A DNA stretch of 64,000 bases, taken from assembly GCA_963700335.1 (NCBI GenBank), contig CAVOXE010000004.1:124633-188632 (forward strand). Direction: 5' to 3'. The position numbers and the translations under genes are program-made. Every line of letters begins with the position of its first letter. Within the stretch, counting starts at the first letter, position 1. Positions 38,438-61,658 of this stretch are shown one piece after another. Source of the DNA: Nitrospirota bacterium (lineage in GTDB: Bacteria > Nitrospirota > Nitrospiria > Nitrospirales > Nitrospiraceae). The notes under the pieces are model-generated. The model was given only the letters and a program-made list of their open reading frames with translations. It did no database searches and had not been told where the DNA came from.

Positions 38438-38444
38438 AACGCAA

Positions 38445-39885: not shown

Positions 39886-39944
39886 GGTTCGCTCGCGGAG
39901 AGTCACGGTCAATTCCATTACACAAAGATCGGAAATGAAGACGT

Positions 39945-41182: not shown

Positions 41183-41316
41183 TTAAAGCCGAAGCCTAAG
41201 TACCTTCTACGACGAATTGCTAAAAGTTGATTCCATTTGATGTCGCCACAGCGGCGACTATTCCCCTGAGCTTCCTGTGTCTTGCGATCTAGACTCAACC
41301 GCAGAACGAATGTGAG

Positions 41317-42591: not shown

Positions 42592-42612
42592 TATTATGAG
42601 GGAGGTCCTACA

Positions 42613-43622: not shown

Positions 43623-43682
43623 CGTGCCTCATCTGTTGGGTCGGATCGTTTGATATCCGGCCTTCGCTGGAGGAGTTAAGTA

Positions 43683-45660
43683 ATGTGTGGAATTAGCGGA
43701 TTTCTCGATTTATCACATCGGTCCAGAAACGATGAACTCCAGGCTACCGTCTTGAAGATGGTGAATACGCTTCACCATCGTGGCCCCGACGATAGCGGAG
43801 CCTGGGCGGACGCTGAAACAGGAATCGCGCTGGGGCATCGCCGCTTGTCGATTGTGGATCTGTCCCCCGAAGGGCAGCAACCGATGCGCTCCGTATGCGG
43901 TCGGTACGTGATCAGTTTTAACGGCGAAGTGTATAACTTCAAGGCGCTCCGCGCTGAAATGGAAGGATTGGGCCATACATTTCGCGGCCATTCCGATACC
44001 GAGATCATGTTGGCCTGTATCTCTCAATGGGGCCTTCTTCCGTCGGTGGAACGTTTCAATGGAATGTTTGCGTTTGCCTTGTGGGACCGCGCAGAGAGAA
44101 AGCTACACCTGGTTCGTGATCGTCTCGGCGAGAAGCCTCTCTATTATGGATGGATGGGCAGGACGTTTCTGTTCGGCTCGGAATTGAAGGCCTTATGTGC
44201 ACATCGTAGTTTTAAACGCGAGCTGAATCGTGATGCCTTGGCCCTCTATTTGCGTCATAACTATATTCCCGCTCCCTATTCGATCTATCAGAATGTGTTC
44301 AAGGTACAACCCGGCATGATCGTGACCATCGATCCGGCCGACGGCAGTGGATCGGTTGCTGCTTTACCGTATTGGTCAGCTCGGCGATGCTGCCGAACGA
44401 GGAGTGGCTGAACCGTTTTCAGGATCCGTCGATGATGCCCTAGCTGCACTTGGATGAATTATTATCCGATGCCGTTAAACTACGTATGCATGCCGATGTG
44501 CCGCTTGGCGCGTTTCTGTCGGGCGGGCTCGATTCTTCGACGATTGTCGCACTGATGCAAGCCCAAAGCACAAAGCCGGTGCAGACTTTTACTATTGGAT
44601 TCTACGAGAGTCGCTACAACGAAGCTCAGAATGCGAAGGCTGTCGCCCATCACTTGGGGACAGAGCATACTGAACTGTACGTCCGACCCGAAGAAGCCAT
44701 GGCCGTGATCCCGCGGCTAGCGACCTTGTATGATGAGCCATTTGCAGACTCGTCTCAAATCCCTACATTTCTGATTTCTCAGTTGGCTCGGCGGCATGTC
44801 ACGGTGAGTTTGTCAGGCGATGCGGGCGACGAACTATTTGCCGGTTACGACCGGTACTTTCTGGGCCACACGCATTTGGGACAAGGTAAACCGAATTCCC
44901 ATGGGACTTCGGAGCTTGGGCGCCAAAGGTTTGAAGACGATCTCACCCGCGTATATGGGAAGCCATCTTCGGGGGACTGCGACCGTTGTTCTCCCGATAG
45001 ACTGAAGATGCGAAACCCGCGAGATAAGCTTGGCCGGCTTGCTGAATTACTCATGACCGACTCTCGTGAAGCGCTGTACTTGAGCCTGGTTTCTCATTGG
45101 AAGGCGCCCGCATCGTTAATCTATGGCGCCAAGGAACCGCAAACGCTCTTGACTGATCCTGGGCAGTGGGCAAACCTGCCGGAGTTTACGCAGCGCATGA
45201 TGTATCTCGATATGGTGACCTATTTGCCTGACGACATTCTGGTCAAAGTGGATCGAGCCAGCATGGGCGTAGGGTTGGAGGCGCGTGTCCCTTTTCTCGA
45301 CCACCGTGTCGTCGAGTTTGCGTGGCAAATTCCTCTTATCGATGAAAATCCGTAACGGTCAGGGCAAGTGGCTGTTACGGCAGCTCTTGCACCGATATGT
45401 TCCGAAGGCATTGGTCGAACGGCCCAAAATGGGGTTTGGTGTCCCCATCGATGGCTGGCTGCGCGGGCCACTCCGGGAGTGGGCCGACACGCTATTAGAT
45501 GAAAAACATTTGAAAGATCAAGCGATCTTCGATCCCAATCCGATTCGCAGCGATATGGGCGGAACACCTCTCCGGTAGGCAGGATTGGCACTACTATTTA
45601 TGGGACATCCTCATGTTCCAATCCTGGTTAGAGCACCAAAAAAGTAACGGTGTCATGTAA
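43683..45660 (+). pseudogene. Glutamine-hydrolysing asparagine synthase (AsnB-type amidotransferase, as found in exosortase/EPS loci), at least 6 frameshifts
   Basis: MCGISGF Ntn start and HRGPDDSG. FLSGGLDSS PP-loop. DEPFADSSQIPT. YLPDDILVKVDRASMGVGLEARVPFLD. GFGVPIDGWLRG. Tail WAEHLSGRQDWHYYLWDILMFQSWLEHQ. Pieces come from track ORFs 43683.., 44450.., 44820.. and 45285.. plus unlisted frames. The last in-frame stop is TAA at 45658-45660. Confidence 0.75.
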
Positions 45661-45869
45661 GAAATGCGGTAGATCGCGTCGCTTACTGTTCTGCGTTTCT
45701 GTGATCGTGCGCCAGTGTTTTCAGTCTCACTCGGGTGGACTCTCAAAGGCAATCCTAACCCCTCATTTAGAATCCCAGATACAGGCACGTGCGCCGGCTG
45801 TCGCGCGGGAGCAGCGGTCGCGAGTGTATCGGGTTGTCGTAGAATCCGTATGATCGAAGGAAGGTTCGA

Positions 45870-47813
45870 ATGTTGACTTACCTCTTACTCATGCTGATGG
45901 CCTGTGGCGCCTCACTCGTGCTGACGCGGCTTGTCCGGGGCGTCGCCGTCCGAGTCGGCGCCGTTGATAAGCCGGATGGACGAAAGGTTCACAAGATAGC
46001 CATCCCCCGCCTAGGCGGTGTCAGCGTCGTGCTTGCCGTAGGTCTTACGACTCTCGCTGCTCTTTGGCTAGGGCCGTTGCAAGGATCAGCTCTCGGCATC
46101 GACGGATGGACGCCCGTGTTACTTGGAAGCGCCATTGTGTTTGTCACGGGATTCTGGGATGACCTGCGACCGCTGCCCGCATGGTTGAAGTTTCTGTTCC
46201 AGGCTATTGCGGCGGGCACGGCGATTTGGTTTGGCGTTCGCGTGGACTCAGTGTTTGCTTTAAGCGGCCACGCCTTCAACCTTGGGATCTTTGCTGTTCC
46301 TCTGACGTTCTTATGGATTGTCGGCCTGACCAATGCCTTTAACCTGATCGATGGGTTGGATGGACTCGCGACCGGACTTGGTTTGATCGCCGCCCTCACA
46401 AGCGCGACGATCTTCTTTCTTGGAGGAGGCCAGTCGGAAGGGCTCCTGTTGCTGATTCTCTCCGGGGCGCTTGCGGGATTTCTTTTCTATAACTTTTACC
46501 CGGCGACAATTTTTCTGGGGGATTCAGGAAGCCAAGTCATTGGATATGTGTTTGCCGTAACCACCATCACGGGCCTACAGAAGGGAAGTTCTGTGCTCTC
46601 GGCCATCATCCCTCTTCTCGTCTTCGGGTTGCCGATCGCCGATACGCTGCTGTCCATCGCCCGTCGTGCCTTCCGCTGTCTCAAAGGCAGCCGAGTGACG
46701 CATACGACGCTCAAAGAACGGATGGTGTTGGCCAAGCACATTTTCAAACCCGATCGCGACCATGTTCATCATCGGTTGCTGGCCATGGGTTTTCCCCATC
46801 GCTCCGCTGTCCTCATGCTCTATGCTTTCGCAGGCGGTCTCTCGTGCCTGGCTCTCCTTGCCGTGGTCGCTGAATACCGCAATGCGGGAGGCATTCTCTT
46901 CGCCGTAGGCGTTGCGACGTACATCGGCATTCGCAAGCTCAATTATGAAGAGGTGGCATTGTGGAAGATCGGTACGCTGCTACGGTGGACCGAACACATT
47001 GTGTTCACCCGGTTGTCACTCCTCATTATGATGGACGTGATGCTGGTCACTGCGGCGTATTGGTCTGCGTTTGTATTGAAATATGATGGGTTGGCGGCAC
47101 CGGCTGTGATGCAGTGGCATCTCATCGCCTTCCCCTGTGTGCTTCTGATTCAGATGAGCGTGTTTTTCGCGGGTGGATTGTATCGAAGCCTTTCTCGTGC
47201 GATGGACATAGCCGACCTGCTTCATTTGAGTGCGGCCGTTGCCACCGCTGTCCTTCTGTCCCATGCGCTGTCGGTGGTCTATGAACCGCCAACGAATGTC
47301 AGGGGCTTCTTTGGAATCGATGCCTTGTTTCTTCTGGTCATCATTTTGGGAGGCCGGAGCGCGTATAGAATTTTGGTCCATCCGCGGCATAAACCTGAGC
47401 TTGTGAAAGAGGGAGAGCGTGTTCTTATCTATGGAGCCGGCCGAAGAGGCGAATGGATTCAGAAAGAGTTACTGGTGAATCGCTCACTCAAACTGTGCCC
47501 GGTCGGTTTTATTGAGGATGATCCCTGCCGGATGGGGCTGACGATCAACGGACTCCGGGTGCTTGGATCAAGTCGAGATTTGGCGCATTTGCTAGACGCG
47601 TGGAAGATTTCGGCTGTCATTGTCTCCTCGAAGAAAATCGGAGCGGAGCGCTTGGCGCCGGTGATCGGCCTCTGTTCCAAATATCAGATCGCCGTGCTGC
47701 GCGCCGACTTTCACCTCGATCTGCTGTCTGGTCCGAAACGGCAAGAGACCACGTGGATGGGTCCCGCATACATACCGGAGTATTCCCGCCCTGGTGAAAT
47801 GATTTCCCGCTGA
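45870..47813 (+). CDS. WecA/MraY-type polyprenyl-phosphate N-acetylhexosamine-1-phosphate transferase fused to extra TM helices and a C-terminal Rossmann-like (CoA-binding-type) domain
   Basis: IPRLGGV, NAFNLIDGLDGLATG and FLGDSGSQ are MraY/WecA-family motifs. After ~330 aa come 4-5 more TM helices. Then VLIYGAGRRGEWIQKEL...VGFIEDDP...INGLRVLG, which resembles the N-terminal module of EPS priming transferases. Confidence 0.8.
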   Translation: MLTYLLLMLMACGASLVLTRLVRGVAVRVGAVDKPDGRKVHKIAIPRLGGVSVVLAVGLTTLAALWLGPLQGSALGIDGWTPVLLGSAIVFVTGFWDDLRPLPAWLKFLFQAIAAGTAIWFGVRVDSVFALSGHAFNLGIFAVPLTFLWIVGLTNAFNLIDGLDGLATGLGLIAALTSATIFFLGGGQSEGLLLLILSGALAGFLFYNFYPATIFLGDSGSQVIGYVFAVTTITGLQKGSSVLSAIIPLLVFGLPIADTLLSIARRAFRCLKGSRVTHTTLKERMVLAKHIFKPDRDHVHHRLLAMGFPHRSAVLMLYAFAGGLSCLALLAVVAEYRNAGGILFAVGVATYIGIRKLNYEEVALWKIGTLLRWTEHIVFTRLSLLIMMDVMLVTAAYWSAFVLKYDGLAAPAVMQWHLIAFPCVLLIQMSVFFAGGLYRSLSRAMDIADLLHLSAAVATAVLLSHALSVVYEPPTNVRGFFGIDALFLLVIILGGRSAYRILVHPRHKPELVKEGERVLIYGAGRRGEWIQKELLVNRSLKLCPVGFIEDDPCRMGLTINGLRVLGSSRDLAHLLDAWKISAVIVSSKKIGAERLAPVIGLCSKYQIAVLRADFHLDLLSGPKRQETTWMGPAYIPEYSRPGEMISR

Positions 47814-47913
47814 AAGAAGTCACGGAAACGCAACGAGGCGTGGGCTCTGATCGAGGACGCGCCTATTCTGTACGACACGCTTAATAACGATCTGAACATT
47901 ATAGGAGATAGCT

Positions 47914-49032
47914 ATGAACAACATACCTATTATTCGCCCCACGCTTCCTGATCTCTCGCAGGTGATCAACGAAATCCGTTCCGGATGGGATGTCGGCATG
48001 GTCACGGTCGGACCGGTCGTGAAGCGGCTGGAAGAGGAAGCCTGCCGACAAACCGGTGCGCAACATGCCGTCGCCTTGTCCTGCTGCACGGCGGGACTCA
48101 TGATGATTCCACGCGCACTGGATCTGCCCCCCGGTAGCGAGGTCATCGTGCCCTCCTTTACCTTTGCGGCCACGGCGCAAGCGCTGCTCTGGAATGGTCT
48201 CGTACCGGTGTTTTGCGAGTGCTTGCCCGGCACGTGCTCGTTAGATCCGGAAGATGTCGAAAGGAATCTGTCGCCACGAACGTCAGCGATTTGCGCTGTG
48301 GCTGTGTACGGTTTGCCCCCCGATATCGATGCCTTGCTGGAAGTCGGCCGACGTGCCGGCGTCCCGGTCTATTTCGATAGTGCGCAAGGATTGGGAGCGA
48401 CCTATCGTGGACAACCGCTGGGAGCGTGGGGAGCCTGTGAAGTGTTCTCACTCAGCCCGAGCAAGGTCGTCACGGCGATTGAAGGCGGTCTTTTCACAAC
48501 CAATGATGCCGCGCTCGCGGGGCGCATTCGGGCGATGCGGGATTACGGGAAGGATCCGGTCAAGGGCGAGGAAATGCTCTATCTGGGATTGTCGGCCCGC
48601 ATGAGCGAATTGCACGCGGCGGTGGGATTGCTCTCGCTCCGTTCCGTTCACGAATTAGTCAAGGCCCGGATGGATCGCATCGCCATGTATCGCGATCGCC
48701 TGGGTTCCTTGCCGGGTTGTTGGGTGCAGGAGTATCCGGCGGATCGAACCACAAGCGGGAACTACTTTGTCCTGTTCATTACCGATCAGGCAAAGGCCGG
48801 CCGAGACGACGTGTACGAGTCACTGAAACAGGCGGGGATACAAACGAAGCGATATTTTTATCCACCGCTTCACGAGCAGGCGATCTTTAAGAAATTCCCG
48901 ATGAGGCTGAGCAATCGTCTTTCGCAGACACAACAGGCCAGTCGTGCAGGCTTGGCCTTGCCCTTGTACTGCCATATGCCGCAGGAAGAGATCGACATGA
49001 TCTGCGAGCGTGTTGAAGCCTTACTCGCGTGA
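47914..49032 (+). CDS. DegT/DnrJ/EryC1/StrS-family PLP-dependent sugar aminotransferase
   Basis: IPIIRPTLPD start, VIVPSFTFAATAQAL, and FSLSPSKVVTAIEGG (PLP lysine context). Confidence 0.85.
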   Translation: MNNIPIIRPTLPDLSQVINEIRSGWDVGMVTVGPVVKRLEEEACRQTGAQHAVALSCCTAGLMMIPRALDLPPGSEVIVPSFTFAATAQALLWNGLVPVFCECLPGTCSLDPEDVERNLSPRTSAICAVAVYGLPPDIDALLEVGRRAGVPVYFDSAQGLGATYRGQPLGAWGACEVFSLSPSKVVTAIEGGLFTTNDAALAGRIRAMRDYGKDPVKGEEMLYLGLSARMSELHAAVGLLSLRSVHELVKARMDRIAMYRDRLGSLPGCWVQEYPADRTTSGNYFVLFITDQAKAGRDDVYESLKQAGIQTKRYFYPPLHEQAIFKKFPMRLSNRLSQTQQASRAGLALPLYCHMPQEEIDMICERVEALLA

Positions 49033-49112
49033 AGACGGAACTAGTATGTTGATGTCAGGACAACCACACTCCGGATCGAAGGACGACCTCGTCACCGGGT
49101 CATGCTGCAGCC

Positions 49113-50894
49113 TTGAAGGGCGCGACGGCTGCCGGAAAACCCAGGCTTTTTCTCTTAATCACGGAGGATTCGTATTTTTGGACCCACCGACTCGACTTAG
49201 CTAGGGCGGCTCGGGATGCGGGTATGGACGTCCATATCGTGACGCGCGTCCGGGATCATGGGAAACGGATTACCGACGAAGGCTTTACACTCGTCCCCAT
49301 TCCGTTTGTACGGAGCGGCCGGCAGCCCTTTGGTGAACTCTTGGCCGTGCTCAAACTGGCGCGATTGTATCGTCGGTTGAAACCGGACCTCGTGCACCAC
49401 GTGGCGATGAAACCGATTCTGTACGGATCATGGGCGGCACGTTTGGCTGGCGTCCCGGCCGTCGTCAATGCCTTTGCAGGCTTAGGGTATGTGTTCATCG
49501 AACAGAACTGGAAGGCTCGATTGCTTCGTGCGGGAGTGAAGATAGGTATGCGCAGTGCGCTTGCCCTGTCGAATGCGCGGGTCATCCTGCAAAACGATGC
49601 TGACTGCAATCGGCTGATCCATGAGAAGGTGGTGCGTCGTGAACAGGTGGCCATGATCCGCGGGGCAGGGGTAGATCTTCAAGCCTTCCATCCCGAGCCG
49701 GAGAAGGCGCGGGAGATCCCCGTGATCGTCCTCGGAGCGCGGATGTTGTGGCACAAAGGCATTGGAGAATTTGTCGAGGCGGCCCGCATCTTACGGAAAC
49801 AGGGCGTACGCGCACGCTGTGTCTTGGTCGGCAAGGCGGACCCCGATAATCCTGCGAGCCTATCGGATGAGCAACTGGCGCGTTGGCATGAGGAAGGCAT
49901 CGTCGAGTGGTGGGGGCATCGGGAAGACATGCCGCACGTGCTGATGCATGCCGATGTGGTGGTGCTGCCCAGCTATGCCGAAGGTTTGCCGAAGATCCTG
50001 CTCGAGGCGTGTGCCTGCGGAAAACCGGTGGTAGCTACGTCCGTAGACGGGTGTCGAGAAATTATTAAGGAGGGGGAGAACGGACTGCTCGTTCCACCGA
50101 AAGATGCCGCAGCCCTCGCCTCGGCCATGAACCGTCTCGTGTCGGATGCCGACCTTCGCCGTCGGATGGGCCATCGTGGTCGAGAGATCGTCGCCCGCTC
50201 CTATTCCAAGGAGCAGGTGGCGCGAGAAACACTGGCTGTCTATGCCGACTTGCTAAATCGCAAGGGCCGCTTTGCATCGAGCAATGGTCATCACATTATG
50301 CCGTTGTTGAATACCACGTCTCGCGTCAACATTGTGAATGAGTCAAGGAGTGCTGTCATGACTTCTCAGATCCCTGTGCCTCCTGGATCGCCGATCGTCA
50401 AACGCGCGTTGGATCTGTGTGGATCGCTGCTGGGCCTTATCGCGCTGACTCCTGTATTCGCCCTTGTCGCCGTGCTGATCAAGATGGATTCATCGGGGCC
50501 GGTATTTTTTCGGCAGGAACGCATCGGCAAGAACTTCCGCCCCTTCTGGATTTATAAACTGCGAACGATGGTGCGTGACGCGCCACGACGAGGGGGCACG
50601 GTTACCACCACTCAGGATCCACGCATCACTCGATTGGGAGCGATTCTTCGCGATACCAAATTGGATGAATTGCCTCAGTTGATTAACGTGCTGAAGGGCG
50701 ACATGAGCTTGGTTGGTCCTCGCCCCGAGGTACAAGAATACGTGCAGATGTTTAAGACTCAGTATACGACGGTCCTGTCCATCCGCCCGGGGATGACGGA
50801 TCTGGCATCGCTTAAATATCGCCATGAGGCCGAAATCTTGTCGTGGGCAGCCAATCCCGAAGAGGAATATGTCAGGCATATTCTTGCCCGATAA
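49113..50894 (+). CDS. Continuous ORF combining a GT4 glycosyltransferase module and a bacterial sugar transferase (Bac_transf, polyprenyl-phosphate hexose-1-P transferase) module; 3' end frameshifted
   Basis: The GT4 part runs to about aa 385 (VVVLPSYAEGLPKILLEACACGKPVVATSVDGCREII). The Bac_transf part starts at an internal AAGGAG-N7-ATG at 50358 (MTSQIPVPPGSPIVKRALDLCGSLLGL..., FFRQERIG, YKLRTM, DELPQLINVLKGDMSLVGPRP). The family's C-terminus (LPDKLRLAEEYVRRSCLGLDLALIFKTF) continues in another frame to 51033. Confidence 0.7.
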   Translation: MKGATAAGKPRLFLLITEDSYFWTHRLDLARAARDAGMDVHIVTRVRDHGKRITDEGFTLVPIPFVRSGRQPFGELLAVLKLARLYRRLKPDLVHHVAMKPILYGSWAARLAGVPAVVNAFAGLGYVFIEQNWKARLLRAGVKIGMRSALALSNARVILQNDADCNRLIHEKVVRREQVAMIRGAGVDLQAFHPEPEKAREIPVIVLGARMLWHKGIGEFVEAARILRKQGVRARCVLVGKADPDNPASLSDEQLARWHEEGIVEWWGHREDMPHVLMHADVVVLPSYAEGLPKILLEACACGKPVVATSVDGCREIIKEGENGLLVPPKDAAALASAMNRLVSDADLRRRMGHRGREIVARSYSKEQVARETLAVYADLLNRKGRFASSNGHHIMPLLNTTSRVNIVNESRSAVMTSQIPVPPGSPIVKRALDLCGSLLGLIALTPVFALVAVLIKMDSSGPVFFRQERIGKNFRPFWIYKLRTMVRDAPRRGGTVTTTQDPRITRLGAILRDTKLDELPQLINVLKGDMSLVGPRPEVQEYVQMFKTQYTTVLSIRPGMTDLASLKYRHEAEILSWAANPEEEYVRHILAR

Positions 50895-51224
50895 ACTCCG
50901 ATTGGCTGAAGAGTATGTACGACGGTCCTGTCTTGGCCTGGATCTGGCGCTTATTTTCAAGACGTTTCTCAAGCTCATCCCTCATGGGAAACCGACGGCC
51001 GTCTCGTATTCGAGAGACTCGTCGATTTCCTAACGATGCCGCCAGCAGTCGCCGGGCCCTCCTACCGTTGTTTCATGGTTTGGCGAGGAACGAGCGACAC
51101 ACGACTGCTCTGTTCGAACAATCATTATCTAGATTTCTTTGAGGACTAAGTTTGGGCGAGTCATCCATGGGATGACCATATCGCTCGCCGAATGATTGGT
51201 GTGCGCTGAAAAAGGAGAAGAAGT

Positions 51225-52812
51225 ATGGTTACCACCGATAGGATCCGTTCATATGTCGATACCGGCGTCCGTCTCGCCGCCGACATGATTATGGTCAACG
51301 TCTCGCTGGCGTTCGCCATGTTGGCGCGGTACTTCATCGTCCTCTGGGTAGAAGGGAGTCTATCGCCGCATGACGTACTTCTCGATTATGTTCGGACAAT
51401 TCGTCCATAGCTTTTGGATTCTGACGATCATTTCCATGGCTGTGTTTTACATCAGCGGGTTTTATACCCGTGGACGGTTCTACCAAGGTCAATATAAAGC
51501 GCTCGTGGTCGCGCAAGCAGTCAGCCTCAGCTATCTCATGTTCGGCTTTGTCTCCATGCTCTCACACGGAGCGATCGTATTGCCGCGCAGCGTCTTCTTT
51601 ATCGGTTGGGCGGTTACCGCCGGCGTATTGATTCTGTCGCGGCTCTGGACAATGTTGTGGCGAATGATGGATGGAACCTCCATGCCGATGGATCGTCGCA
51701 GAGGTGTGACGAAAGGACAGAGGACAAGGAAAATTCTCGTCATCGGAGGAGCGGGGTACATTGGATCGGCGCTGCTGCCCAAGCTGTTGGACCGTGGATA
51801 TCATGTGCGTCTGTTGGACTTGTTCTTGTTCGGAAAGGGTCCCATCGTCGATGTGATTGGCCACCCCAATTTACAAATCGTGCATGCCGATTTTCGTCAC
51901 GTCGATCGCATCGTTCAAGCGATGAACGGTATGGATGAGGTGATTCATCTGGGGGCGATCGTCGGCGATCCCGCCTGCTCCTTGGATCAGGAATTGACCG
52001 TCGAAGTGAATTTGATGGCGGTTCGGATGATTGCCGAAGTGGCGAAGGGAAGCGGCATCCGACGGTTTTGCTTTGCGAGTACCTGCTCTGTATATGGAGC
52101 CAGCGATGAGTTTTTAGAAGAGCGATCGCATCTGCACCCGCTTTCACTCTATGCGCGAAGCAAGCTTGCGTCTGAAAAGGTTCTGACGCAGATGGCGGAC
52201 GAGCAATTTTCGCCCGTCATTCTTCGGTTAGGGACGGTGTATGGATTGTCCGGACGCACTCGCTTCGATCTGGTGATCAACCTATTGACCGCAAAAGCGG
52301 TGAAAGAAGGAAAGATCACGGTATTCGGAGGCGGACAGTGGAGGCCGTTCCTGCATGTCAACGATGCCGCCCTTGCCTTATTGAAGGCGGTCGAAGCGCC
52401 CACGGATCTCATTCACGGACAAGTCTTCAATGTGGGATCCAACGAGCAAAACTATCGGTTAGGAGATGCGGCAGCCATCATCCAGTCACTGGTGCCTGGG
52501 TCGGAAGTCGTCGATATGGGAGCCGATACGGATTTCAGAAATTATCGGGTCGACTTTTCCAAGATTAAAAAGATGTTGAACTTCACTCCGGAATGGACCT
52601 TAGAGCAGGGGATTAAACAGGTGATTGCGGCATTCGATAAAGGCGAAGTGTTGGATTATCGGAATGCCATGTACAGCAATGTCAAATTCCTCATCGAGGA
52701 AGCGAACTCCCGCTTGATCCGACGTGAGAAAGGATGGGCGCACGAGCTTCTGAAGGAAGAAGTGAAGCCGTCAAATGGTTCGAATGGGCCTGTCGTCGTG
52801 GCGACACATTGA
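51225..52812 (+). pseudogene. Membrane-anchored NAD-dependent sugar epimerase/dehydratase, 1 frameshift in the N-terminal TM region
   Basis: Track ORF 51225..51410 holds the first TM helix (RLAADMIMVNVSLAFAMLARYFIVL). ORF 51370..52812 holds three more TM helices. The SDR domain follows: ILVIGGAGYIGSAL, HLGAIVGDP, LYARSKLASE. The junction is near 51395 (acaattcg). Confidence 0.7.
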
Positions 52813-52863
52813 CGCAAACGGATTGTAAAAGGAATCAGTCACCATGCAGGCAGACGTAGCGGT

Positions 52864-53889
52864 ATGAGTATCAGACACAAAACAAGGCGCCTTGGTCATT
52901 TCGTTGGACTTCGAGCTCTACTGGGGCATGCGAGATGTAAGGGGGATCGAGAATTATCGGGAGACTCTCTTAGGGGAGCGACTGGTCGTTCCGGCCCTGT
53001 TGCAGCTCTTTCAGGAGTATGAGATTCATGCCACATGGGCGACGGTCGGCTTTATGTTCTGTGAGACGCGCGATGAACTCCTCCGGCAAGCGCCGACGCA
53101 AGAAGCCACTGTATGTCAATCACGAACTTTCGCCATATCCTCACCTCTCACACGTCGGACGGGACGAACAGGAAGACCCATTTCATTTTGCGCCTTCGCT
53201 CATCAAGCTCATCGCGTCGTCCCCCCATCAGGAAGTGGCAACCCACACGTTCTCTCATTACTATTGTTTAGAAAAAGGACAAGACATAGAGTCCTTCCGT
53301 GCTGATCTCGAAGCGGCGAAGAAGGTCGCGAGCAAATATACATTGAATATGGAAAGTCTTGTATTCCCACGCAACCAATTCAATGGCGACTATCTCTCGG
53401 CGTGCAAGGAATTAGGCATCAAGGCCTATCGTGGCAACGAACGTTCGTGGATTTACAGGGCGAAAAGCAGAGAGGATGAATCCCTATTTCGCCGTGCAGT
53501 GCGGCTCCTGGATGCCTATGTCAATATCTCAGGTCATAACTGCTATGCTCTCGAACGGCTTCCGCGCGACAGTACCAGTAAATGTTCCGTCAAGCCGATT
53601 TCTTCGGCCTGTTTCCATCAGTCGTCGGTTGCTGGAGCCTTTGCGTATGCGCCGGATCCTGTCCGATCTGACGCATGCGGCAAAGAAGGGATTGGTGTAT
53701 CACCTGTGGTGGCATCCGCATAATTTCGGCGACCACATGGAAGAAAACTTGGCGTTTCTCAAAAAGATTTTGGATCATTACGCGAATCTGAAAAAGGTTT
53801 ATGGCATGGAAAGTCTTAATATGGGAGACATCGCTCGGAGAGCATTGAATGGCAATGACGTCGTACATAACGCCTTGGTAAATGGGTAG
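52864..53889 (+). pseudogene. Polysaccharide deacetylase-like protein, 3 frameshifts
   Basis: ATG at 52864 (MSIRHK), then a shift in an A-run into LVISLDFELYWGMRD... (ORF 52892..). It continues in ORF 53019.. (EVATHTFSHYYC, LVFPRNQF) and ORF 53431.. (LVYHLWWHPHNFG). Family call is moderate. Confidence 0.55.
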
Positions 53890-54798
53890 GCTTTCATTTC
53901 TGATAAGGCATCTTATGAATGTGAACCTAAGGCCCTTCACGGCCTCGATTCCCTGGTGGGGAAAGATCGCCGCGAAACTGGTTTTGGCGCGTTTACCGGT
54001 AGATTATACAATCTGGAAAGGGTTGCACTTATTCGAGTGCGGCCTCATGGAAGATCCCAGCTATGCCTATGGCGTATTTAAAAAACATTATGATGCGGCC
54101 CAATCACGACGGACATTCCGTGGGTTCGTCGGACTGGAGCTAGGCCCAGGAGATTCGCTATTCACAGCGATGATTGCCAATGCGTACGGGGCCACGGGCT
54201 ATTATTTGGTTGATGTGAAGGACTATGCGAAACGTGACATGCAATGCTATAGGGCCTTGACACAATTTCTCACGGACCGAGGGATTGGCAACGATCTCAG
54301 AAGACGGCTTGACATCGACAGAAGCGCTTCTCACCGCGTGTCATGCGACCTACGGTACGCGCGGGCTCAGATCGTTGCAGGCAATTCCAGATCACTCAGT
54401 CGATTACAGTTGGTCGCACACCGTTCTGCAGCACGTCCCCTTGAAAGAATTTAGACAAACAATCGGAGAGCTCCGGCGCCAGCTTCGTCCCGATGGCATC
54501 AGCTCACATTGGGTAGATCTGCAAGACTGCATAGGGGGAGGCCTGAACAATCTCAGATTCTCAGAAGCCGTGTGGGAATCGCCCTTCATGGCCAACTCCG
54601 GCTTTTACACTAATCGCATACGATATTCGGAAATGTTGGAAGTATTCAAAGAAGCTCGATTCGAAGCTGAGGTCGTACAGTGTCAAGCGTTGGGATCGAC
54701 TTCCGATTCAGCGCTCAAAGCTGTCGCCACGATTTCAGAAGCTGTCTGACGAGGATTTGCGCGTGCGAGTCTTTCATGTGATTTTAAGACCGGTCTAA
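53882..54798 (+). pseudogene. SAM-dependent methyltransferase-like protein, 2 frameshifts
   Basis: GLELGPGDSLFTAMIA (motif I-like) in ORF 53882..54454. VDYSWSHTVLQHVPLKEF...LRPDGISSHWVDL in ORF 54285..54749. The tail RVFHVILRPV is in a third frame and ends with TAA at 54796-54798. Confidence 0.55.
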
Positions 54799-54847: not shown

Positions 54848-56312
54848 ATGAGATATATGCTGGGCAGGTTGAAGTATTGTGTGACGTGCTGGGCGTTAAG
54901 CGTGGCACTGAGTTGTGTTTTGATGGTTGACGACCGGGCATGCAGCGTCGTCGACAGCGCATCAAAGTTACCGGCTCGGACCCAATGACGTGGTTCGGAT
55001 CCAAGTCTATGGAGAAGAAGACTTAACGATCGAAAGTAAAATTGATGGCGACGGAAATATTAATTTTCCATTACTGGGGATGGTGACGGTCGCGGGTAAG
55101 ACTCTCCCGGAACTTCAGGAATATCTAGGCGCTCAGTTGGCACGAGGCTATGTTCGCACGCCGCGGGTCACCGCCTATATATTCAAATATCGAAACTTTT
55201 ACGTCAGTGGAGAGGTCAAGACTCCAGGAGGCCATCCGTATGAGGAGGGGCTCAGCGTTCAAAAAGCGATCACGATGGCAGGTGGTCTGACGGACAAGGC
55301 AGAACGGGACAACGTTTACGCCTTACGGCGCGTCAATGGTCAAGAAGAGACAGTGCCGGTTACATTGGAGAGCCCGGTATACCCCGACGATACCATCGTT
55401 GTGCCTGAAGGACAGAAAATATACGTGAGTGGCGAGGTCAAGACGCCCGGCCGCTTTGGTTATGAAAAAGGATTGACCGTCCAAAAAGCGTTGAGCCTGG
55501 CAGGGGGGCGCACAGAAAAGGCGGAAAAAGGTGTCATCAAAGTGACGCGCGTGACGGAAGGCCTGGCGGCAACGTTGCCTGTGAATCCAGAGGCGGTTGT
55601 CATGCCGGGCGACATTCTCGTGGTCGAGCCGCAAGATTATAAATTCTACACCAGCGGAGAAGTGAAAAACCCTGGCGGATATTCCCATAAGGAGGGTCTG
55701 ACCGTTCACAAAGCTATTGCCATGGCAGGAGGGCTCACCGAAAAAGCAATGCCTGGCGATTTGCATATCCTTCGTTCGGTGAATGGACGAGAGGAAACAC
55801 TCGAGGTTAAATTGGATACCTTGGTCCTCCCAGACGACATCATCGTGGTAGCTCAGGGAGAGAAGTTTTTTGTTAACGGAGAAGTGAAGATACCGGGTCG
55901 CTATTTATACGAGAAGGGGCTGACCGTGCACAAGGCCATCACGATGGCCGGTGGGTTTACCGACAAGGCTGAAAAGGCCGCGATTAAAGTCACTCGGCAG
56001 GTCGATGGGAACCCTCACACAGTGGAGGCCGATCTTGAGGCCAGGGTGCTTCCCAATGATTTTATTGTCATCGCCCAGATGCATAAAGTGTATGTGAATG
56101 GAGAAGTAAAGAAGGCCGGTGACTATCCGTATGAGAAGGGCCTGACGATCCATAAAATCATCACTATGGCTGGTGGGTTTACGGACAAGGCGGCGGTGGG
56201 GCGGACGAAGATTTTACGGATTGTGGATGGGGAGGAGCAATCGTTGCGGGTGACGCTGGATGCGCAGGTGTTGCCGGAGGATATCGTCGTGGTGCCGCGC
56301 AGTTTCTTTTAA
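54848..56312 (+). pseudogene. Wza-like polysaccharide export protein A: Poly_export domain + 5 SLBB modules; signal peptide is out of frame
   Basis: Track ORF 54927..56312 starts at a TTG with no signal peptide. An ATG at 54848 encodes MRYMLGRLKYCVTCWALSVALSCVLMV in the -1 frame and would join near 54925-54935. Poly_export: YRLGPNDVVRIQVYGEEDL...INFPLLGMVTVAGKT. Five repeats of the type FYVSGEVK.PG.Y.YE.GLTV.KAI.MAGG.T.KA follow. Confidence 0.75.
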
Positions 56313-56384
56313 GGCGGCGGGGAGACGGACGAAGCGGCCGGGACGGGAGAGTCGTGATTGGAGCGGGACCGTGAGGGAAGGACC

Positions 56385-58286
56385 ATGAACAGAGCACGGG
56401 CGCGAGGGACGAGGGGGCTACGGAAGGGACTGTGGCTGGGCATCCTGCTGGCGTCATGGGTAGCGGTGGCGGTGGCGGCGACCGCGCCCGGGTACCGGCT
56501 GGGGCCCAATGATGTGGTGCGCATTCAAGTCTATGGCGAAGAAGACTTGACGGTGGAGAGCAAGGTGGACGGCGAGGGCACGATTCATTTTCCGTTAGTG
56601 GGCCAGGTGGCGGTCGGAGGGAAGACCACGCAGGAGCTACAGGAGTTGCTGACGACGCGCTTAGCGGGGGGCTATATGCGCGCCCCGCGCGTGACGGCCT
56701 ATGTGTTGAAGTATCGCAATATTTACGTCAGTGGAGAAGTGCGGACGCCGGGCGGACATCCGTATGAGGAGGGCCTCACGGTGCAGAAGGCCATTACGAT
56801 GGCGGGTGGCATTACCGAGAAGGCCGAGCGGGGCGGCGCGGTGCGCATTGTGCGGTCCGTCAACGGGCAGGAGACGGCAGTACTGGTTCAGTTAGACAGT
56901 CTCGTCTTACCGGACGATACGATTGTGGTGGCGGAGGGGCAGCGAGTGTATGTGAGTGGGGAGGTGAAGACGCCGGGGCGGTATCTGTATGAGAAGGGGT
57001 TGACGGTGCACAAGGCGCTGGGGATGGCCGGGGGGCGTTCGGAGAAGGGGGAGAAGGGGCTGATCAAAGTGACGCGGCTGACCCAGGGCGTGGCCGAGAC
57101 GCAGGTGTTGGCGCCGGAGGCGGCGGTGCTGCCCGATGATATTTTGGTGGTGGAGCCGCAGGACTATAAGTTCTACGCGAGCGGCGAGGTGAAGAATCCC
57201 GGCGGCTATCCCTATAAGGAGGGGCTGACGGTGCATAAGGCGCTGGCCATGGCCGGCGGGCTGACGGAGAAGGCCGAGCGCGGAGACGTGCACATCTTAC
57301 GCGCGGGCAAGGGGCAGGAGGAGACGCTGGTCGGCAAGCCCGAGAGCCTCCTGCTGCCGGACGATACGATTGTGGTGGCGGAGGGGCAGCGAGTGTATGT
57401 GAGTGGGGAGGTGAAGACGCCGGGGCGGTATCTGTATGAGAAGGGGCTGACGGTGCACAAGGCGCTGGGGATGGCCGGGGGGCGCTCGGAGAAGGGGGAG
57501 AAGGGGCTGATCAAAGTGACACGGCTGACCCAGGGCGTGGCCGAGACGCAGGTGTTGGCGCCGGAGGCGGCGGTGCTGCCCGATGATATTTTGGTGGTGG
57601 AGCCGCAGGACTATAAGTTCTACGCGAGCGGCGAGGTAAAGAATCCCGGCGGCTATCCCTATAAGGAGGGGCTGACGGTGCATAAGGCGCTGGCCATGGC
57701 CGGCGGGCTGACGGAGAAGGCCGAGCGCGGGGACGTGCACATCTTACGCGCGGGCAAGGGGCAGGAGGAGACGCTGGTCGGCAAGCCCGAGAGCCTCCTG
57801 CTGCCGGACGATACGATTGTGGTGGCGGAGGGGCAGCGAGTGTATGTGAGTGGGGAAGTGAAGACGCCGGGGCGGTATCTGTATGAGAAGGGGTTGACGG
57901 TGCACAAGGCCATTACGATGACCGGCGGCTTTACGGAGAAAGCGGATAAGGCCACGATCCACGTGACGCGCGTCGTCAACGGTGTCGCGCAGACCCGGGA
58001 AGCTACGCTGGAGACGTCCGTGCTGCCGGATGATTTCGTCGTCATCTCCCAGCTGCACAAGATTTATGTCAACGGGGAGGTGAAGAAAGCCGGCGACTAT
58101 CCCTATGAGAAGGGGCTGACGATTCATAAGATCATTACGATGGCCGGGGGCTTTACCGATAAAGCAGCCGCCGGCCGGACGACCATCTTGCGCATCGTCA
58201 ATGGCGAGGAGCAATCCCTCCGCGTCACGCTTGATGCCCTCGTGCTCCCCGAAGATATCGTCGTCGTCCCCCGCAGCTTCTTCTAG
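56385..58286 (+). CDS. Wza-like polysaccharide export protein C: Poly_export domain + 7 SLBB modules
   Basis: The ATG at 56385 (GGGAAGGA RBS) gives the signal peptide MNRARARGTRGLRKGLWLGILLASWVAVAVAA. The Poly_export domain is followed by 7 SLBB repeats. The protein ends ...VVVPRSFF. Confidence 0.85.
   Translation: MNRARARGTRGLRKGLWLGILLASWVAVAVAATAPGYRLGPNDVVRIQVYGEEDLTVESKVDGEGTIHFPLVGQVAVGGKTTQELQELLTTRLAGGYMRAPRVTAYVLKYRNIYVSGEVRTPGGHPYEEGLTVQKAITMAGGITEKAERGGAVRIVRSVNGQETAVLVQLDSLVLPDDTIVVAEGQRVYVSGEVKTPGRYLYEKGLTVHKALGMAGGRSEKGEKGLIKVTRLTQGVAETQVLAPEAAVLPDDILVVEPQDYKFYASGEVKNPGGYPYKEGLTVHKALAMAGGLTEKAERGDVHILRAGKGQEETLVGKPESLLLPDDTIVVAEGQRVYVSGEVKTPGRYLYEKGLTVHKALGMAGGRSEKGEKGLIKVTRLTQGVAETQVLAPEAAVLPDDILVVEPQDYKFYASGEVKNPGGYPYKEGLTVHKALAMAGGLTEKAERGDVHILRAGKGQEETLVGKPESLLLPDDTIVVAEGQRVYVSGEVKTPGRYLYEKGLTVHKAITMTGGFTEKADKATIHVTRVVNGVAQTREATLETSVLPDDFVVISQLHKIYVNGEVKKAGDYPYEKGLTIHKIITMAGGFTDKAAAGRTTILRIVNGEEQSLRVTLDALVLPEDIVVVPRSFF
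56910..57910 (+). repeat. In-frame 447-bp tandem repeat, ~2.2 copies (gene C)
   Basis: The anchor ccggacgatacgattgtggtggcggagggg recurs at 56910, 57357 and 57804, an exact 447-nt period. Units are near-identical. Confidence 0.92.
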
Positions 58287-58454
58287 CCATTTGTTCCACT
58301 GTGCACTCTAGGTTCTTCCAGCCTGTTTCCCTTAATCCTAGTGCCCACCTTCGGTATTAACTACTGAGCGACAGTCGCACCCGGAGTGATTGTTTTGAGG
58401 CCCGTTATCATAAGCGCTTCTGTGAAATGTGAACGAGCGAGCTAAGGTGGAAAT

Positions 58455-59235
58455 ATGAACACTCGATCCCTTCGATTGAAATGGTGTCTGCTCAGTGTAT
58501 TTCTGACTTGCTTGATGTCTACCGCCGGCGTCGCATCACCCATATCCTCGCATCAAAGCTATCGATTAGGGGTCAATGATGTGGTGCGCATCCAAGTCTA
58601 TGGGGAAGAGGACCTGACGGTAGAAAGTAAAGTGGATGGCGATGGGAATATTAATTTTCCTTTGTTGGGGATGATATCCATAGCAGGCAAGACGAGTCTG
58701 GAGTTGCAGGAATATCTCACGACACGGTTGGCGGGCGGTTACGTACGGTCGCCGAAAGTCACGGCGTCCATCCTTAAATACCGAAATTTCTATGTGAGCG
58801 GAGAAGTGAAGAGCCCGGGAGGGTACCCCTATGAGGAAGGACTTAGTGTTCAAAAAGCACTCACCATTGCAGGGGGTATGACGGAAAAGGCCGAGAAGCA
58901 TGACTTGAATATCCTCCGATCGGTCAATGGGAATCCACAGATCCTTCCGGTCAAGGCCGATAGCGTCGTTCTGCCCGATGATACGATTGTCGTGGCGGAG
59001 GGCAAGCGCTTCTATGTCAATGGTGAAGTGAAGTCGCCAGGCCGTTATCTCTACGAGAAAGGCCTCACGGTGCACAAGGCCATCACCATGGTTGGGGGGG
59101 TTTACGGACAAGGCGGCGGTGGGGCGGACGAAGATTTTACGGATTGTGGATGGGGAGGAGCAATCGTTGCGGGTGACGCTGGATGCGCAGGTGTTGCCGG
59201 AGGATATCGTCGTGGTGCCGCGCAGTTTCTTCTAG
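58455..59235 (+). pseudogene. Wza-like polysaccharide export protein D: Poly_export + 2 SLBB modules, frameshifted in a G7 tract
   Basis: Signal peptide MNTRSLRLKWCLLSVFLTCLMSTAGVA. After ...HKAITMVGG the G7 run (59094-59100) throws the frame, so track ORF 58455..59282 ends in Gly/Arg-rich nonsense. With G6 the sequence reads FTDKAAVGRTKILRIVDGEEQSLRVTLDAQVLPEDIVVVPRSFF and stops at 59233-59235. Confidence 0.75.
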
Positions 59236-59309
59236 AGGCGGCGGGGAGACGGACGAAGCGGCCGGGGACGGGAGAGTCGTGATTGGAGCGGGACCGTGAG
59301 GGAAGGACC

Positions 59310-61658
59310 ATGAACAGAGCACGGGCGCGAGGGACGAGGGGGATACGGAAGGGACTGTGGCTGGGCATCCTGCTGGCGTCATGGGTAGCGGTGGCGGTGG
59401 CGGCGACCGCGCCTGGGTACCGGCTGGGGCCCAATGATGTGGTGCGCATTCAAGTCTATGGCGAAGAAGACTTGACGGTGGAGAGCAAGGTGGACGGCGA
59501 GGGCACGATTCATTTTCCGTTAGTGGGCCAGGTGGCGGTCGGAGGGAAGACCACGCAGGAGCTACAGGAGTTGCTGACGACGCGCTTAGCGGGGGGCTAT
59601 ATGCGCGCCCCGCGCGTGACGGCCTATGTGTTGAAGTATCGCAATATTTACGTCAGTGGCGAAGTGCGGACGCCGGGCGGACATCCGTATGAGGAGGGCC
59701 TCACGGTGCAGAAGGCCATTACGATGGCGGGTGGCATTACCGAGAAGGCCGAGCGGGGCGGTGCGGTGCGCATTGTGCGGTCCGTCAACGGGCAGGAGAC
59801 GGCAGTGCTGGTCCAGTTAGACAGTCTCGTCTTGCCGGACGATACGATTGTGGTGGCGGAGGGGCAGCGGGTGTATGTGAGTGGGGAGGTGAAGACGCCG
59901 GGGCGGTATCTGTATGAGAAGGGGTTGACGGTGCACAAAGCGCTGGGGATGGCCGGGGGGCGTTCGGAGAAGGGGGAGAAGGGGCTGATCAAAGTGACGC
60001 GGCTGACCCAGGGCGTGGCCGAGACGCAGGTGTTGGCGCCGGAGGCGGCGGTGCTGCCCGATGACATTTTGGTGGTGGAGCCGCAGGACTATAAGTTCTA
60101 CGCGAGCGGCGAGGTGAAGAATCCCGGCGGCTATCCCTATAAGGAGGGGCTGACGGTGCACAAGGCGCTGGCCATGGCCGGCGGGCTGACGGAGAAAGCC
60201 GAGCGCGGGGACGTGCACATCTTACGCGCGGGCAAGGGGCAGGAGGAGACGCTGGTCGGCAAGCCCGAGAGCCTCCTGCTGCCGGACGATACGATTGTGG
60301 TGGCGGAGGGGCAGCGAGTGTATGTGAGTGGGGAGGTGAAGACGCCGGGGCGGTATCTGTATGAGAAGGGGCTGACGGTGCACAAGGCGCTGGGGATGGC
60401 CGGGGGGCGTTCGGAGAAGGGGGAGAAGGGGCTGATCAAAGTGACGCGGCTGACCCAGGGCGTGGCCGAGACGCAGGTGCTGGCGCCGGAGGCGGCGGTG
60501 CTGCCCGATGATATTTTGGTGGTGGAGCCGCAGGACTATAAGTTCTACGCGAGCGGCGAGGTAAAGAATCCCGGCGGCTATCCCTATAAGGAGGGGCTGA
60601 CGGTGCATAAGGCGCTGGCCATGGCCGGCGGGCTGACGGAGAAGGCCGAGCGCGGGGACGTGCACATCTTACGCGCGGGCAAGGGGCAGGAGGAGACGCT
60701 GGTCGGCAAGCCCGAGAGCCTCCTGCTGCCGGACGATACGATTGTGGTGGCGGAGGGGCAGCGAGTGTATGTGAGTGGGGAGGTGAAGACGCCGGGGCGG
60801 TATCTGTATGAGAAGGGGCTGACGGTGCACAAGGCGCTGGGGATGGCCGGGGGGCGCTCGGAGAAGGGGGAGAAGGGGCTGATCAAGGTGACGCGGCTGA
60901 CCCAGGGCGTGGCCGAGACGCAGGTGTTGGCGCCGGAGGCGGCGGTGCTGCCCGATGATATTTTGGTGGTGGAGCCGCAGGACTATAAGTTCTACGCGAG
61001 CGGCGAGGTAAAGAATCCCGGCGGCTATCCCTATAAGGAGGGGCTGACGGTGCACAAGGCCGTGGCCATGGCCGGCGGGCTGACGGAGAAGGCCGAGCGC
61101 GGGGACGTGCACATCTTACGCGCGGGCAAGGGGCAGGAGGAGACGCTGGTCGGCAAGCCCGAGAGCCTCCTGCTGCCGGACGATACGATTGTGGTGGCGG
61201 AGGGGCAGCGAGTGTATGTGAGTGGGGAGGTGAAGACGCCGGGGCGGTATCTGTATGAGAAGGGGTTGACGGTGCACAAGGCCATTACGATGACCGGCGG
61301 CTTTACGGAGAAAGCGGATAAGGCCACGATCCACGTGACGCGCGTCGTCAACGGTGTCGCGCAGACCCGGGAAGCTACGCTGGAGACGTCCGTGCTGCCG
61401 GATGATTTCGTCGTCATCTCCCAACTGCACAAGATTTATGTCAACGGCGAGGTGAAGAAAGCCGGCGACTATCCCTATGAGAAGGGGCTGACGATTCATA
61501 AGATCATTACGATGGCCGGGGGCTTTACCGATAAAGCAGCCGCCGGCCGGACGACCATCTTGCGCATCGTCAATGGCGAGGAGCAATCCCTCCGCGTCAC
61601 GCTCGATGCCCTCGTGCTCCCCGAAGATATCGTCGTCGTCCCCCGCAGCTTCTTCTAG
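59310..61658 (+). CDS. Wza-like polysaccharide export protein E: Poly_export domain + 9 SLBB modules
   Basis: Near-identical to gene C with one extra 149-aa (two-SLBB) unit. ATG at 59310 has the same RBS and signal peptide. Confidence 0.85.
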   Translation: MNRARARGTRGIRKGLWLGILLASWVAVAVAATAPGYRLGPNDVVRIQVYGEEDLTVESKVDGEGTIHFPLVGQVAVGGKTTQELQELLTTRLAGGYMRAPRVTAYVLKYRNIYVSGEVRTPGGHPYEEGLTVQKAITMAGGITEKAERGGAVRIVRSVNGQETAVLVQLDSLVLPDDTIVVAEGQRVYVSGEVKTPGRYLYEKGLTVHKALGMAGGRSEKGEKGLIKVTRLTQGVAETQVLAPEAAVLPDDILVVEPQDYKFYASGEVKNPGGYPYKEGLTVHKALAMAGGLTEKAERGDVHILRAGKGQEETLVGKPESLLLPDDTIVVAEGQRVYVSGEVKTPGRYLYEKGLTVHKALGMAGGRSEKGEKGLIKVTRLTQGVAETQVLAPEAAVLPDDILVVEPQDYKFYASGEVKNPGGYPYKEGLTVHKALAMAGGLTEKAERGDVHILRAGKGQEETLVGKPESLLLPDDTIVVAEGQRVYVSGEVKTPGRYLYEKGLTVHKALGMAGGRSEKGEKGLIKVTRLTQGVAETQVLAPEAAVLPDDILVVEPQDYKFYASGEVKNPGGYPYKEGLTVHKAVAMAGGLTEKAERGDVHILRAGKGQEETLVGKPESLLLPDDTIVVAEGQRVYVSGEVKTPGRYLYEKGLTVHKAITMTGGFTEKADKATIHVTRVVNGVAQTREATLETSVLPDDFVVISQLHKIYVNGEVKKAGDYPYEKGLTIHKIITMAGGFTDKAAAGRTTILRIVNGEEQSLRVTLDALVLPEDIVVVPRSFF
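59835..61282 (+). repeat. In-frame 447-bp tandem repeat, ~3.2 copies (gene E)
   Basis: The same anchor recurs at 59835, 60282, 60729 and 61176. Confidence 0.92.

Follow-up and report, generated by a model that had tools for sequence, protein, structure and literature searches.

A tandem array of multi-SLBB exporter paralogues, probably of the OPX Class 3 type, at the end of a Nitrospirota polysaccharide locus

Exporters of the OPX family move capsule and biofilm polymers across the periplasm of diderm bacteria. Saidi et al. 2022 (PMC9603273) describe Class 1 as Poly_export-SLBB(1-14)-Wza_C and Class 3 as Poly_export-SLBB(1-7); by definition, Class 3 has Poly_export-SLBB(n) and neither Wza_C nor GfcC. 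Their supplement also lists Thermotoga and Ignavibacterium OPX proteins in which Pfam scores seven SLBB hits, and OPX lengths range from 138 to 1,728 aa (Schwabe et al. 2022; PMC9601211). Long multi-SLBB forms are thus known from genomics, with none studied experimentally, and the exporters characterised so far have one or two SLBB modules. Here we describe four OPX genes, g1 to g4, on the + strand at 54.8-61.7 kb of a 64,000-nucleotide stretch (the window) of a Nitrospirota bacterium (GenBank assembly GCA_963700335.1, contig CAVOXE010000004.1). An earlier reading of this DNA from its letters alone (the sequence-only reading) had proposed four adjoining Wza-like exporters with five, seven, two and nine SLBB modules, and had expected characterised exporters to have few; on these points our searches agree with it. 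Taken together, the array is probably best explained as the export end of a Wzx/Wzy-type exopolysaccharide (EPS) locus, consisting of tandem Class-3-type OPX paralogues whose length changes through a two-module B-C unit.

Each of the four proteins contains one Poly_export domain (Pfam, E 1e-22 to 1e-24), followed by five SLBB stretches in g1 (E 5e-63), seven in g2 (3e-90), two in g3 (1e-19) and nine in g4 (2e-115), all far above chance level. They therefore combine Poly_export (PF02563) with at least one SLBB domain (PF10531), as the OPX superfamily requires, and PCP and Wzy-type assembly genes are encoded on the same strand upstream of them. Poly_export and SLBB account for the full length of the proteins; neither Wza_C (PF18412) nor the Caps_synth_GfcC domain (PF06251) placed after SLBB in Class 2 matched g1-g4 in Pfam at E<=0.01. 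In an AlphaFold2 (AF2) model of g1 (pLDDT 80.5, pTM 0.39), five beta-grasp modules follow one another, and the chain finishes with a beta-strand belonging to the last SLBB module instead of a terminal helix of the Class 1 kind. The best Foldseek matches of this model were Wza (E ~1e-17) and the Class-3 OPX WzaB (PDB 9n9a, E 1e-12), and 9n9a ranked first in a profile search of the PDB, in line with the Wza-family assignment. The domain composition is that of Class 3, with the nine modules of g4 exceeding the range of one to seven given in PMC9603273.

The C-terminus bears on the same assignment. An RSFF end is present in g1, g2 (PRSFF), g4 and frame-corrected g3; the shared C-terminus of the sequence-only reading thus stands for three genes as assembled and, for g3, only after one G is removed. 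WzaB ...VPESFF aligns with ...VVVPrrFF of the profile consensus, positions at which ...VVVPRSFF stands in the window proteins. A C-terminal FF was found in 113 of 120 homologues (best 90%-identity clusters). Deleting S-F-F abolishes both the binding of WzaB to the porin WzpB and secretion (Mellouk et al. 2026; PMC12819527). By analogy, the aromatic end is best read as a Class-3 porin-docking motif, which explains it better than the outer-membrane targeting signal suggested earlier (PMC12819527). An outer-membrane beta-signal was considered and rejected, the last 74 residues forming a complete SLBB module.

Division of the protein sequences at a conserved motif, (F/I/V)Y(V/A)(S/N)GEV, yielded five module types, A to E. 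The order is A-B-C-D-E in g1, A-(B-C)x2-D-E in g2 and A-(B-C)x3-D-E in g4, while frame-corrected g3 has A and a last module of D/E-like type. In DNA, the B-C pair is a 447-bp unit repeated in tandem in g2 and g4 (Table 1). These two genes are ~99% identical, g4 having one 447-bp two-module unit more. Module by module they differ by 2-6 substitutions without gaps, and the B copies among themselves, like the C copies, by 0-5; almost all of these substitutions are synonymous, and none of the comparisons contains a gap. By contrast, g1 and g2 differ at ~25-30% of positions, and the identity of g1 and g3 to g2/g4 is only ~70-76%, so the idea that the four genes differ in module number alone has to be abandoned. 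Because g2 and g4 are near-identical, with synonymous and gap-free differences, the ladder of module counts is not a set of four independent designs. The graded set comprises three paralogue lineages and one very recent duplicate, g4, which was copied from g2 and has one B-C unit more. Identical copies of g2 (P0137) and g4 (P0134) are held in public databases.

Self-BLAST and alignment showed that the duplicated segment, ~2.1-2.6 kb long, starts inside g1 and g3, in the final module of each. Near-identity begins at a GG/TTTACGG junction (56170 and 59095) and runs via the spacer to the stops at 58286 and 61658, with differences only at isolated sites, single-base indels among them. Homologous recombination between the conserved E modules would have duplicated the segment from the E tail of g1 through g2 and placed the copy after g3, and module number would change by steps of the 447-bp B-C unit. 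GC content at third codon positions (GC3) is 0.82-0.84, with overall GC of 0.635-0.643, in g2 (56385-58283) and g4 (59310-61655), versus GC3 of 0.52-0.66 in g1, g3 and eight other window genes; possible causes are GC-biased gene conversion in the recombining repeat, foreign origin and expression-linked codon bias. Antisense ORFs (open reading frames) of 100-206 aa cross the SLBB repeats on the - strand at 56907-58214 and 59648-61736. With their 447-bp periodicity, they are by-products of repeat composition, not genes.

Homologues were found nearly exclusively in Nitrospira and Nitrospirales. We searched 77 loci from GTDB species representatives, a set that lacks the genome of the window itself, with hidden Markov models (HMMs) built from the window modules; module counts obtained with these models instead of Pfam, here and in the homologue clusters and protein library below, are approximate for distant proteins. 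The best representative match, 88% identical to the window (L003), has the array 5-7-2 and lacks duplication copy 2, from the g3 tail to g4. Because its intact g3 is directly followed by a PRC-barrel gene, the ancestral array was 5-7-2, with g4 inserted later. We also considered g3 as a deletion remnant and rejected this, as an intact two-module paralogue is kept beside long ones in many genomes. Other arrays read 7 ... 5-7-2 (L005), 2-9-7 in the complete genome of Ca. Nitrospira defluvii (L008; FP929003.1, within 2609031-2630899), 9-2 (L035), 11-5 (L001) and, in five genomes as well as in several Methylomirabilota/Rokubacteria loci, 4-2; two Ca. Marithrix genomes have a single 10-module gene. 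Tandem OPX arrays are the rule in the Nitrospira lineage, and the 2-9-7, 5-7-2, 9-2 and 11-5 arrays of other Nitrospira genomes overturn the impression that a graded tandem set is undescribed or rare.

The 447-bp unit is likewise lineage-wide, the identity between its copies being highest in the window (98%) and lower in L003 (91%), N. defluvii (82-86%) and L001 (72%). A long multi-SLBB OPX adjoins a short 2-SLBB OPX in L003, L005, L006, L008, L010-L014, L028, L032, L035 and L039, a pairing seen in Nitrospira and likewise in metagenome-assembled genomes of Methylomirabilota/Rokubacteria, which hints that the long and short forms may work together. Among the 120 best 90%-identity clusters of homologues, 109 proteins were complete: 6 had four modules, 50 five, 14 six, 30 seven, 2 eight, 4 nine, 2 ten and 1 eleven. 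The excess of odd counts (24 proteins are even) fits a 3+2n rule.

More widely, a HMMER scan of 1.84 billion cluster representatives (50% identity) retrieved 345 proteins at E<=1e-30. At least eight SLBB-like modules were counted in 35 of the best 150 representatives, with a maximum of 21 in a 2,040-aa protein. As judged from these sequences, a nine-module exporter is not unusual, and since SLBB(1-14) is already catalogued in PMC9603273, the claim that such a protein is undescribed or rare does not hold. Multi-SLBB exporters in tandem are normal in public genomes of this lineage, and no experimental study deals with the long forms. Our literature search found no paper linking Nitrospira to SLBB or multi-module exporters, and none covering the Nitrospira arrays. 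The arrangement is an uncharacterised, lineage-typical Class-3 OPX variant, already in public genomes including that of N. defluvii.

By analogy with described exporters, each paralogue would oligomerise into rings stacked to make a conduit through the periplasm, with its Poly_export end facing the inner-membrane PCP/Wzc. Its C-terminal Phe-Phe would dock onto a beta-barrel porin of the outer membrane whose gene lies elsewhere in the genome, and the conduit would lengthen by two rings with each B-C pair. The oligomeric state, the stacked rings and the contact with a porin are predictions drawn from this analogy. In a long stack, an N-terminal lipid anchor in the outer membrane would be geometrically impossible because D1 would lie far from that membrane. 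The signal peptide of g2 is Sec-type, and on inspection neither it nor that of g4 contains a Cys, which is consistent with a long stack that lacks such an anchor. Roughly 30% of Class 3 proteins are of the SPI type (PMC9603273).

Several observations weigh against this explanation. Conduits of two and of nine rings cannot both span one periplasm, which leaves the roles of the differing paralogues unexplained. The PCP-contact motif R106-R107 of WzaB (aligned as YVRRP) keeps only its first Arg, its equivalents being YVRTP in g1, YMRAP in g2/g4 and YVRSP in g3. The oligomerisation of WzaB requires lipidation (PMC12819527), and g2/g4 have signal peptides without a lipobox Cys; g1 and its intact orthologues have a possible lipobox (...ALSC/ALGC...), and g3 an atypical FLTC, all judged by inspection only. 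A 262-aa N. moscoviensis OPX is placed in Class 1 by HHpred in a table of PMC9603273, so that the class assignment of the clade is not unanimous. Class 3 exporters work with an outer-membrane beta-barrel porin of 16-18 strands (Wzp/EpsX/GfcD type), whose gene often adjoins theirs. Neither a Wzp-like nor another beta-barrel porin was recognised with Pfam among the ORFs scanned in the window and beside the L008 and L035 arrays, a search that used no Wzp-specific model and did not extend to the rest of the genome. Of the sequences considered for this role, the unannotated window ORFs at 4463-5665, 35519-36013, 36753-37409 and 23706-24404 showed nothing barrel-like in Pfam, and a 488-aa ORF of L035 was rejected as the partner porin, not being a barrel by sequence. 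Finally, indel noise in the assemblies leaves it insecure how many copies there are exactly and whether g1 and g3 are intact.

Two ENA assemblies, L080 and L081, are 93-98% identical to the window (94.6-98.3% in the aligned segments of L080). The same four genes are present in L080 with 5/7/2/7 modules, and L081 has 5/9, its nine-module gene being 98.5% identical to g4. The variation between 5/7/2/9, 5/7/2/7 and 5/9 is an apparent one, attributable to recombinational polymorphism or to assembly collapse, all three assemblies being noisy. Against L080, a contig 95-98% identical to the window, 54 of the 56 gaps are of 1 nt; the assemblies carry ~0.6% 1-nt gaps. Overlapping out-of-frame ORFs mark split genes at 29143-31278, 36753-37720, 39945-41016, 43683-45355, 52892-53889 and 53882-54749, which include PCP (three pieces), one GT4 (two) and AsnB (two). 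Given these split genes and the 1-nt gap spectrum, the assembly is rich in single-base indels, probably of the long-read type, and a biological reading of the frameshifts in g1 and g3 is thereby weakened.

In g1, one extra base near 54930 puts the signal peptide out of frame with the Poly_export part. Of the two features that the sequence-only reading ascribed to all four genes, Poly_export is present throughout, and the signal peptide of g1 is out of frame as assembled. The ATG at 54848, which opens the signal-peptide ORF, is preceded by a Shine-Dalgarno-like motif. Intact 483-aa orthologues (P0124, P0126) read ...CVLMVATGHAAS... in frame, with MVATGHAAS at the junction, and the extra base is common to the window and L080. 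In g3, a +1 frameshift lies in the G7 run at 59094-59100, so that the protein as assembled ends ...GGVYGQGGGG...TGES; removing one G restores the ...VVVPRSFF end. The shift is not found in L080, which has G7+TT at the site and is in frame, and g3 is intact in L003 (259 aa). An indel error of the assembly is the most likely cause of the shift in g3; the one in g1 may be real.

These shifts raise the possibility of a partly decayed array, in which g1 and g3 are real pseudogenes and only g2 and g4 function in this strain. The extra base of g1 is shared with L080 while other samples have intact orthologues, and g2 and g3 are absent from L081, which implies that the gene content of the locus is dispensable or variable. 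On the other hand, the g3 frameshift is unshared, both genes are otherwise open and conserved 3' of their shifts, and at such a rate of 1-nt gaps assemblies from the same platform may share systematic errors. We regard decay as rather unlikely.

The fourth gene, the seven-versus-nine counts or both could also stem from mis-assembly, through repeat expansion, collapse or a chimeric join in a noisy long-read metagenome, the real locus being 5-7-2 or 5-9. Besides the 1-nt gaps that separate the window from its close relatives and the split frames of many neighbouring genes, the position of the g3 frameshift exactly on the duplication junction would fit this explanation, as would the discordance of the three related assemblies, the 5/9 of L081 being the exact product expected from a collapsed duplication. 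However, the ~1% of substitutions between g2 and g4, almost all synonymous and free of indels, is unlike error or a duplicated read path, and an artefact would require two precise junctions inside homologous E modules. Because the four-gene order recurs in L080, a separate assembly, and the nine-module allele in L081, and because the divergence is synonymous only, a simple artefact is disfavoured; we consider it improbable.

The proteins might instead be self-sufficient channels of the Class 1 (Wza) type, whose aromatic C-terminus itself inserts into or targets the outer membrane with no porin partner. This would account for the porin gene not found near the arrays and for the tabulated Class 1 assignment of the N. 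moscoviensis protein, and insertion of the FF side chains into the bilayer has been noted as another possibility (PMC12819527). We nevertheless judge it very improbable, as a Wza_C match is absent, the last 74 residues are a full SLBB module, whose final element in the AF2 model is a beta-strand and not an amphipathic helix, and the C-terminus aligns with that of WzaB, a Class-3 OPX dependent on the porin WzpB. Least probable of all is that the beta-grasp chains form no conduits and instead bind polysaccharide as extended scaffolds or fibres, located in the periplasm or the matrix, with module number tuning avidity instead of length: the beads-on-a-string g1 monomer model with its low pTM, the linear poly-ubiquitin and bacterial multi-ubiquitin filaments that follow the OPX matches in Foldseek, and the nature of SLBB domains as ligand-binding modules would all suit this, but Poly_export is invariant, the genes end a PCP/Wzy locus, the porin-docking FF motif is conserved, and every characterised protein of this architecture is an export-channel component (PMC9603273, PMC12819527).

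The pattern of variation invites a bolder and unlikely proposal, that the 447-bp unit and the recombining E modules form a rapidly adjustable length ruler for export conduits. The strains of one population may then carry 5/7/2/9, 5/7/2/7 or 5/9 sets, and a cell may co-express conduits of different lengths or stack a long OPX head-to-tail on a two-module OPX, such conduits perhaps bridging an unusually wide or variable Nitrospira periplasm. The periplasm of Nitrospira is reportedly wide or variable, and our literature search gave no confirming text. Were the proposal true, the width of the periplasm would determine exporter architecture and be open to selection, and the ruler would mirror the idea of a short OPX plus an extra-long PCP (PMC9601211).

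Dense flocs and biofilms rich in EPS are the habitat of Nitrospira, which are key nitrite oxidisers. OPX proteins that are long, non-lipidated and FF-ended and that grow by two-ring steps would offer a natural experiment on conduit length versus envelope geometry, and also on the oligomerisation of Class-3 OPX proteins that have no lipid anchor. The 5/7/2/9 pattern is lineage-typical, recombination-driven and unremarked in public genomes, while partly dependent on a noisy assembly; the features that stand out in it are the change of length by steps of two modules, an apparent polymorphism between strains and the way in which Class-3 OPX proteins assemble when they are long and non-lipidated.

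A polysaccharide locus of ~26 kb on the same strand, annotated with Pfam and NCBIfam (Table 1), ends with the array. No Wzx flippase was identified by these scans of the locus. At its head, the NusG-domain ORF is a candidate RfaH/UpxY-like antiterminator. Within it, 45870-47813 encodes a Glycos_transf_4 domain of WecA-like type ahead of the N-terminal part of an EPS polyprenyl glycosylphosphotransferase, and 49113-50894 a GT4 glycosyltransferase fused to a Bac_transf domain; both fusions are unusual and may be real or frameshift-joined neighbours. A scan for promoters and terminators gave weak consensus matches only, not above a shuffled control. Directly downstream of the array, at 61709-62679 in the window, 9311-17437 in L080 and 9566-17503 in L081, lie a small PRC-barrel ORF and a type II secretion-like cluster with GspC, a secretin, GspE, GspF, GspG and pseudopilins. 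A PRC-barrel gene follows the exporters in L003, L080 and L081, and GspC/type II secretion genes come next in L080 and L081.

Table 1. Coordinates of the exporter genes, their repeats and the polysaccharide locus in the window.
Feature	Position	Strand	Description
g1	54848..56312	+	OPX paralogue, Poly_export + 5 SLBB (A-B-C-D-E), end ...VVVPRSFF
g1 main ORF	54927-56312	+	From ORF list; signal-peptide segment 54848 to ~54929 in other frame
g2	ORF 56358-58286, likely ATG 56385	+	OPX paralogue, 633 aa, Poly_export + 7 SLBB
g3 as assembled	58455-59282	+	Short OPX paralogue, Poly_export + 2 SLBB
g3 corrected	58455..59235	+	259 aa, end PRSFF, stop TAG 59233-59235
g4	ORF 59283-61658, likely ATG 59310	+	OPX, 782 aa, Poly_export + 9 SLBB
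Tandem array in g2	56910..57910	+	447-bp B-C unit, 2.2 copies, 98% matches, no indels (Tandem Repeats Finder)
Tandem array in g4	59833..61323	+	447-bp B-C unit, 3.2 copies, 98% matches, no indels (Tandem Repeats Finder)
Duplication copy 1	56170..58286	+	Second half of g1 last module, g1-g2 spacer, whole g2
Duplication copy 2	59095..61658	+	g3 tail, spacer near-identical to g1-g2 spacer, whole g4
Polysaccharide biosynthesis locus	28417..54749	+	Upstream of exporters (Pfam and NCBIfam scans)
NusG-like ORF	28417-29010	+	Head of polysaccharide locus, just 5' of PCP gene
PCP / chain-length determinant with kinase	29143-31278	+	Three fragments
Wzy_C polymerase	38620-39885	+	
Other locus genes	within 28417..54749	+	Several GT4 glycosyltransferases, AsnB-type amidotransferase, DegT aminotransferase, epimerases
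Priming transferases	within 28417..54749	+	WecA-like and Bac_transf

Elsewhere in the window, a 626-aa ORF on the - strand (7102-8982) has an animal haem peroxidase domain (E 5e-26), a family uncommon in bacteria. It is followed by 3 kb without a long ORF (8983-12012) that contain a tRNA-Gly(CCC) at 9382-9456. ARAGORN also made an odd tRNA-like call of 91 nt with a 4-base anticodon at 25242-25332, which has no Rfam support; the Rfam scan of the window returned one tRNA and nothing else.

Among described systems, WzaB, WzaX and WzaS of Myxococcus xanthus (PMC12819527, PMC9603273, PMC9601211) resemble the window proteins in having an N-terminal Poly_export (D1) followed by SLBB only, in lacking both the Wza_C helix and GfcC, and in being encoded in a Wzx/Wzy-type locus with a PCP; the ...VP(E/R)SFF C-terminus of WzaB matches theirs residue for residue. 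They differ in that WzaB has one SLBB (204 aa) where the window proteins have 2, 5, 7 and 9, is a lipoprotein that needs its lipid anchor to oligomerise whereas the signal peptides of g2/g4 are Cys-free, carries R106-R107 in place of R-T/A/S, and has a partner porin gene adjoining wzaB, none being found beside the window exporters. Escherichia coli Wza (Class 1, PDB 2J58), the best match of the g1 model, shares Poly_export followed by tandem beta-grasp SLBB rings, but has two SLBB, an outer-membrane-spanning amphipathic Wza_C helix and an N-terminal lipid anchor; the window proteins have no Wza_C, up to nine SLBB and an FF C-terminus.

The XrtA/PEP-CTERM exporter model TIGR03027 scored 184.7 for g1 and 252.2 for g4 (cut-off 180; g3 was below it), and the EpsE model TIGR03028 scored 328.5 for g4 (cut-off 262.65), values inflated by summing over 4-8 repeated stretches. 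The two models, of 169 and 239 positions, are for proteins with one or two SLBB, in contrast to the two to nine of the window. The window ORFs scanned with Pfam and NCBIfam included no exosortase.

The multi-SLBB OPX proteins of Saidi et al. 2022 (Thermotoga, 992 aa; Ignavibacterium, 894 aa) likewise combine one Poly_export with many SLBB; these long proteins are assigned to Class 1, whereas g4 lacks Wza_C and lies above the Class 3 range of 1-7, and tandem paralogue arrays of differing counts do not appear to be discussed in that article (PMC9603273). The array of Ca. N. defluvii differs from that of the window in its order, 2-9-7 versus 5-7-2-9, and in having no near-identical gene duplicate, but shares with it adjoining same-strand OPX paralogues, the 447-bp two-module repeat and the FF C-terminus, and likewise ends a sugar-nucleotide/EPS gene cluster.

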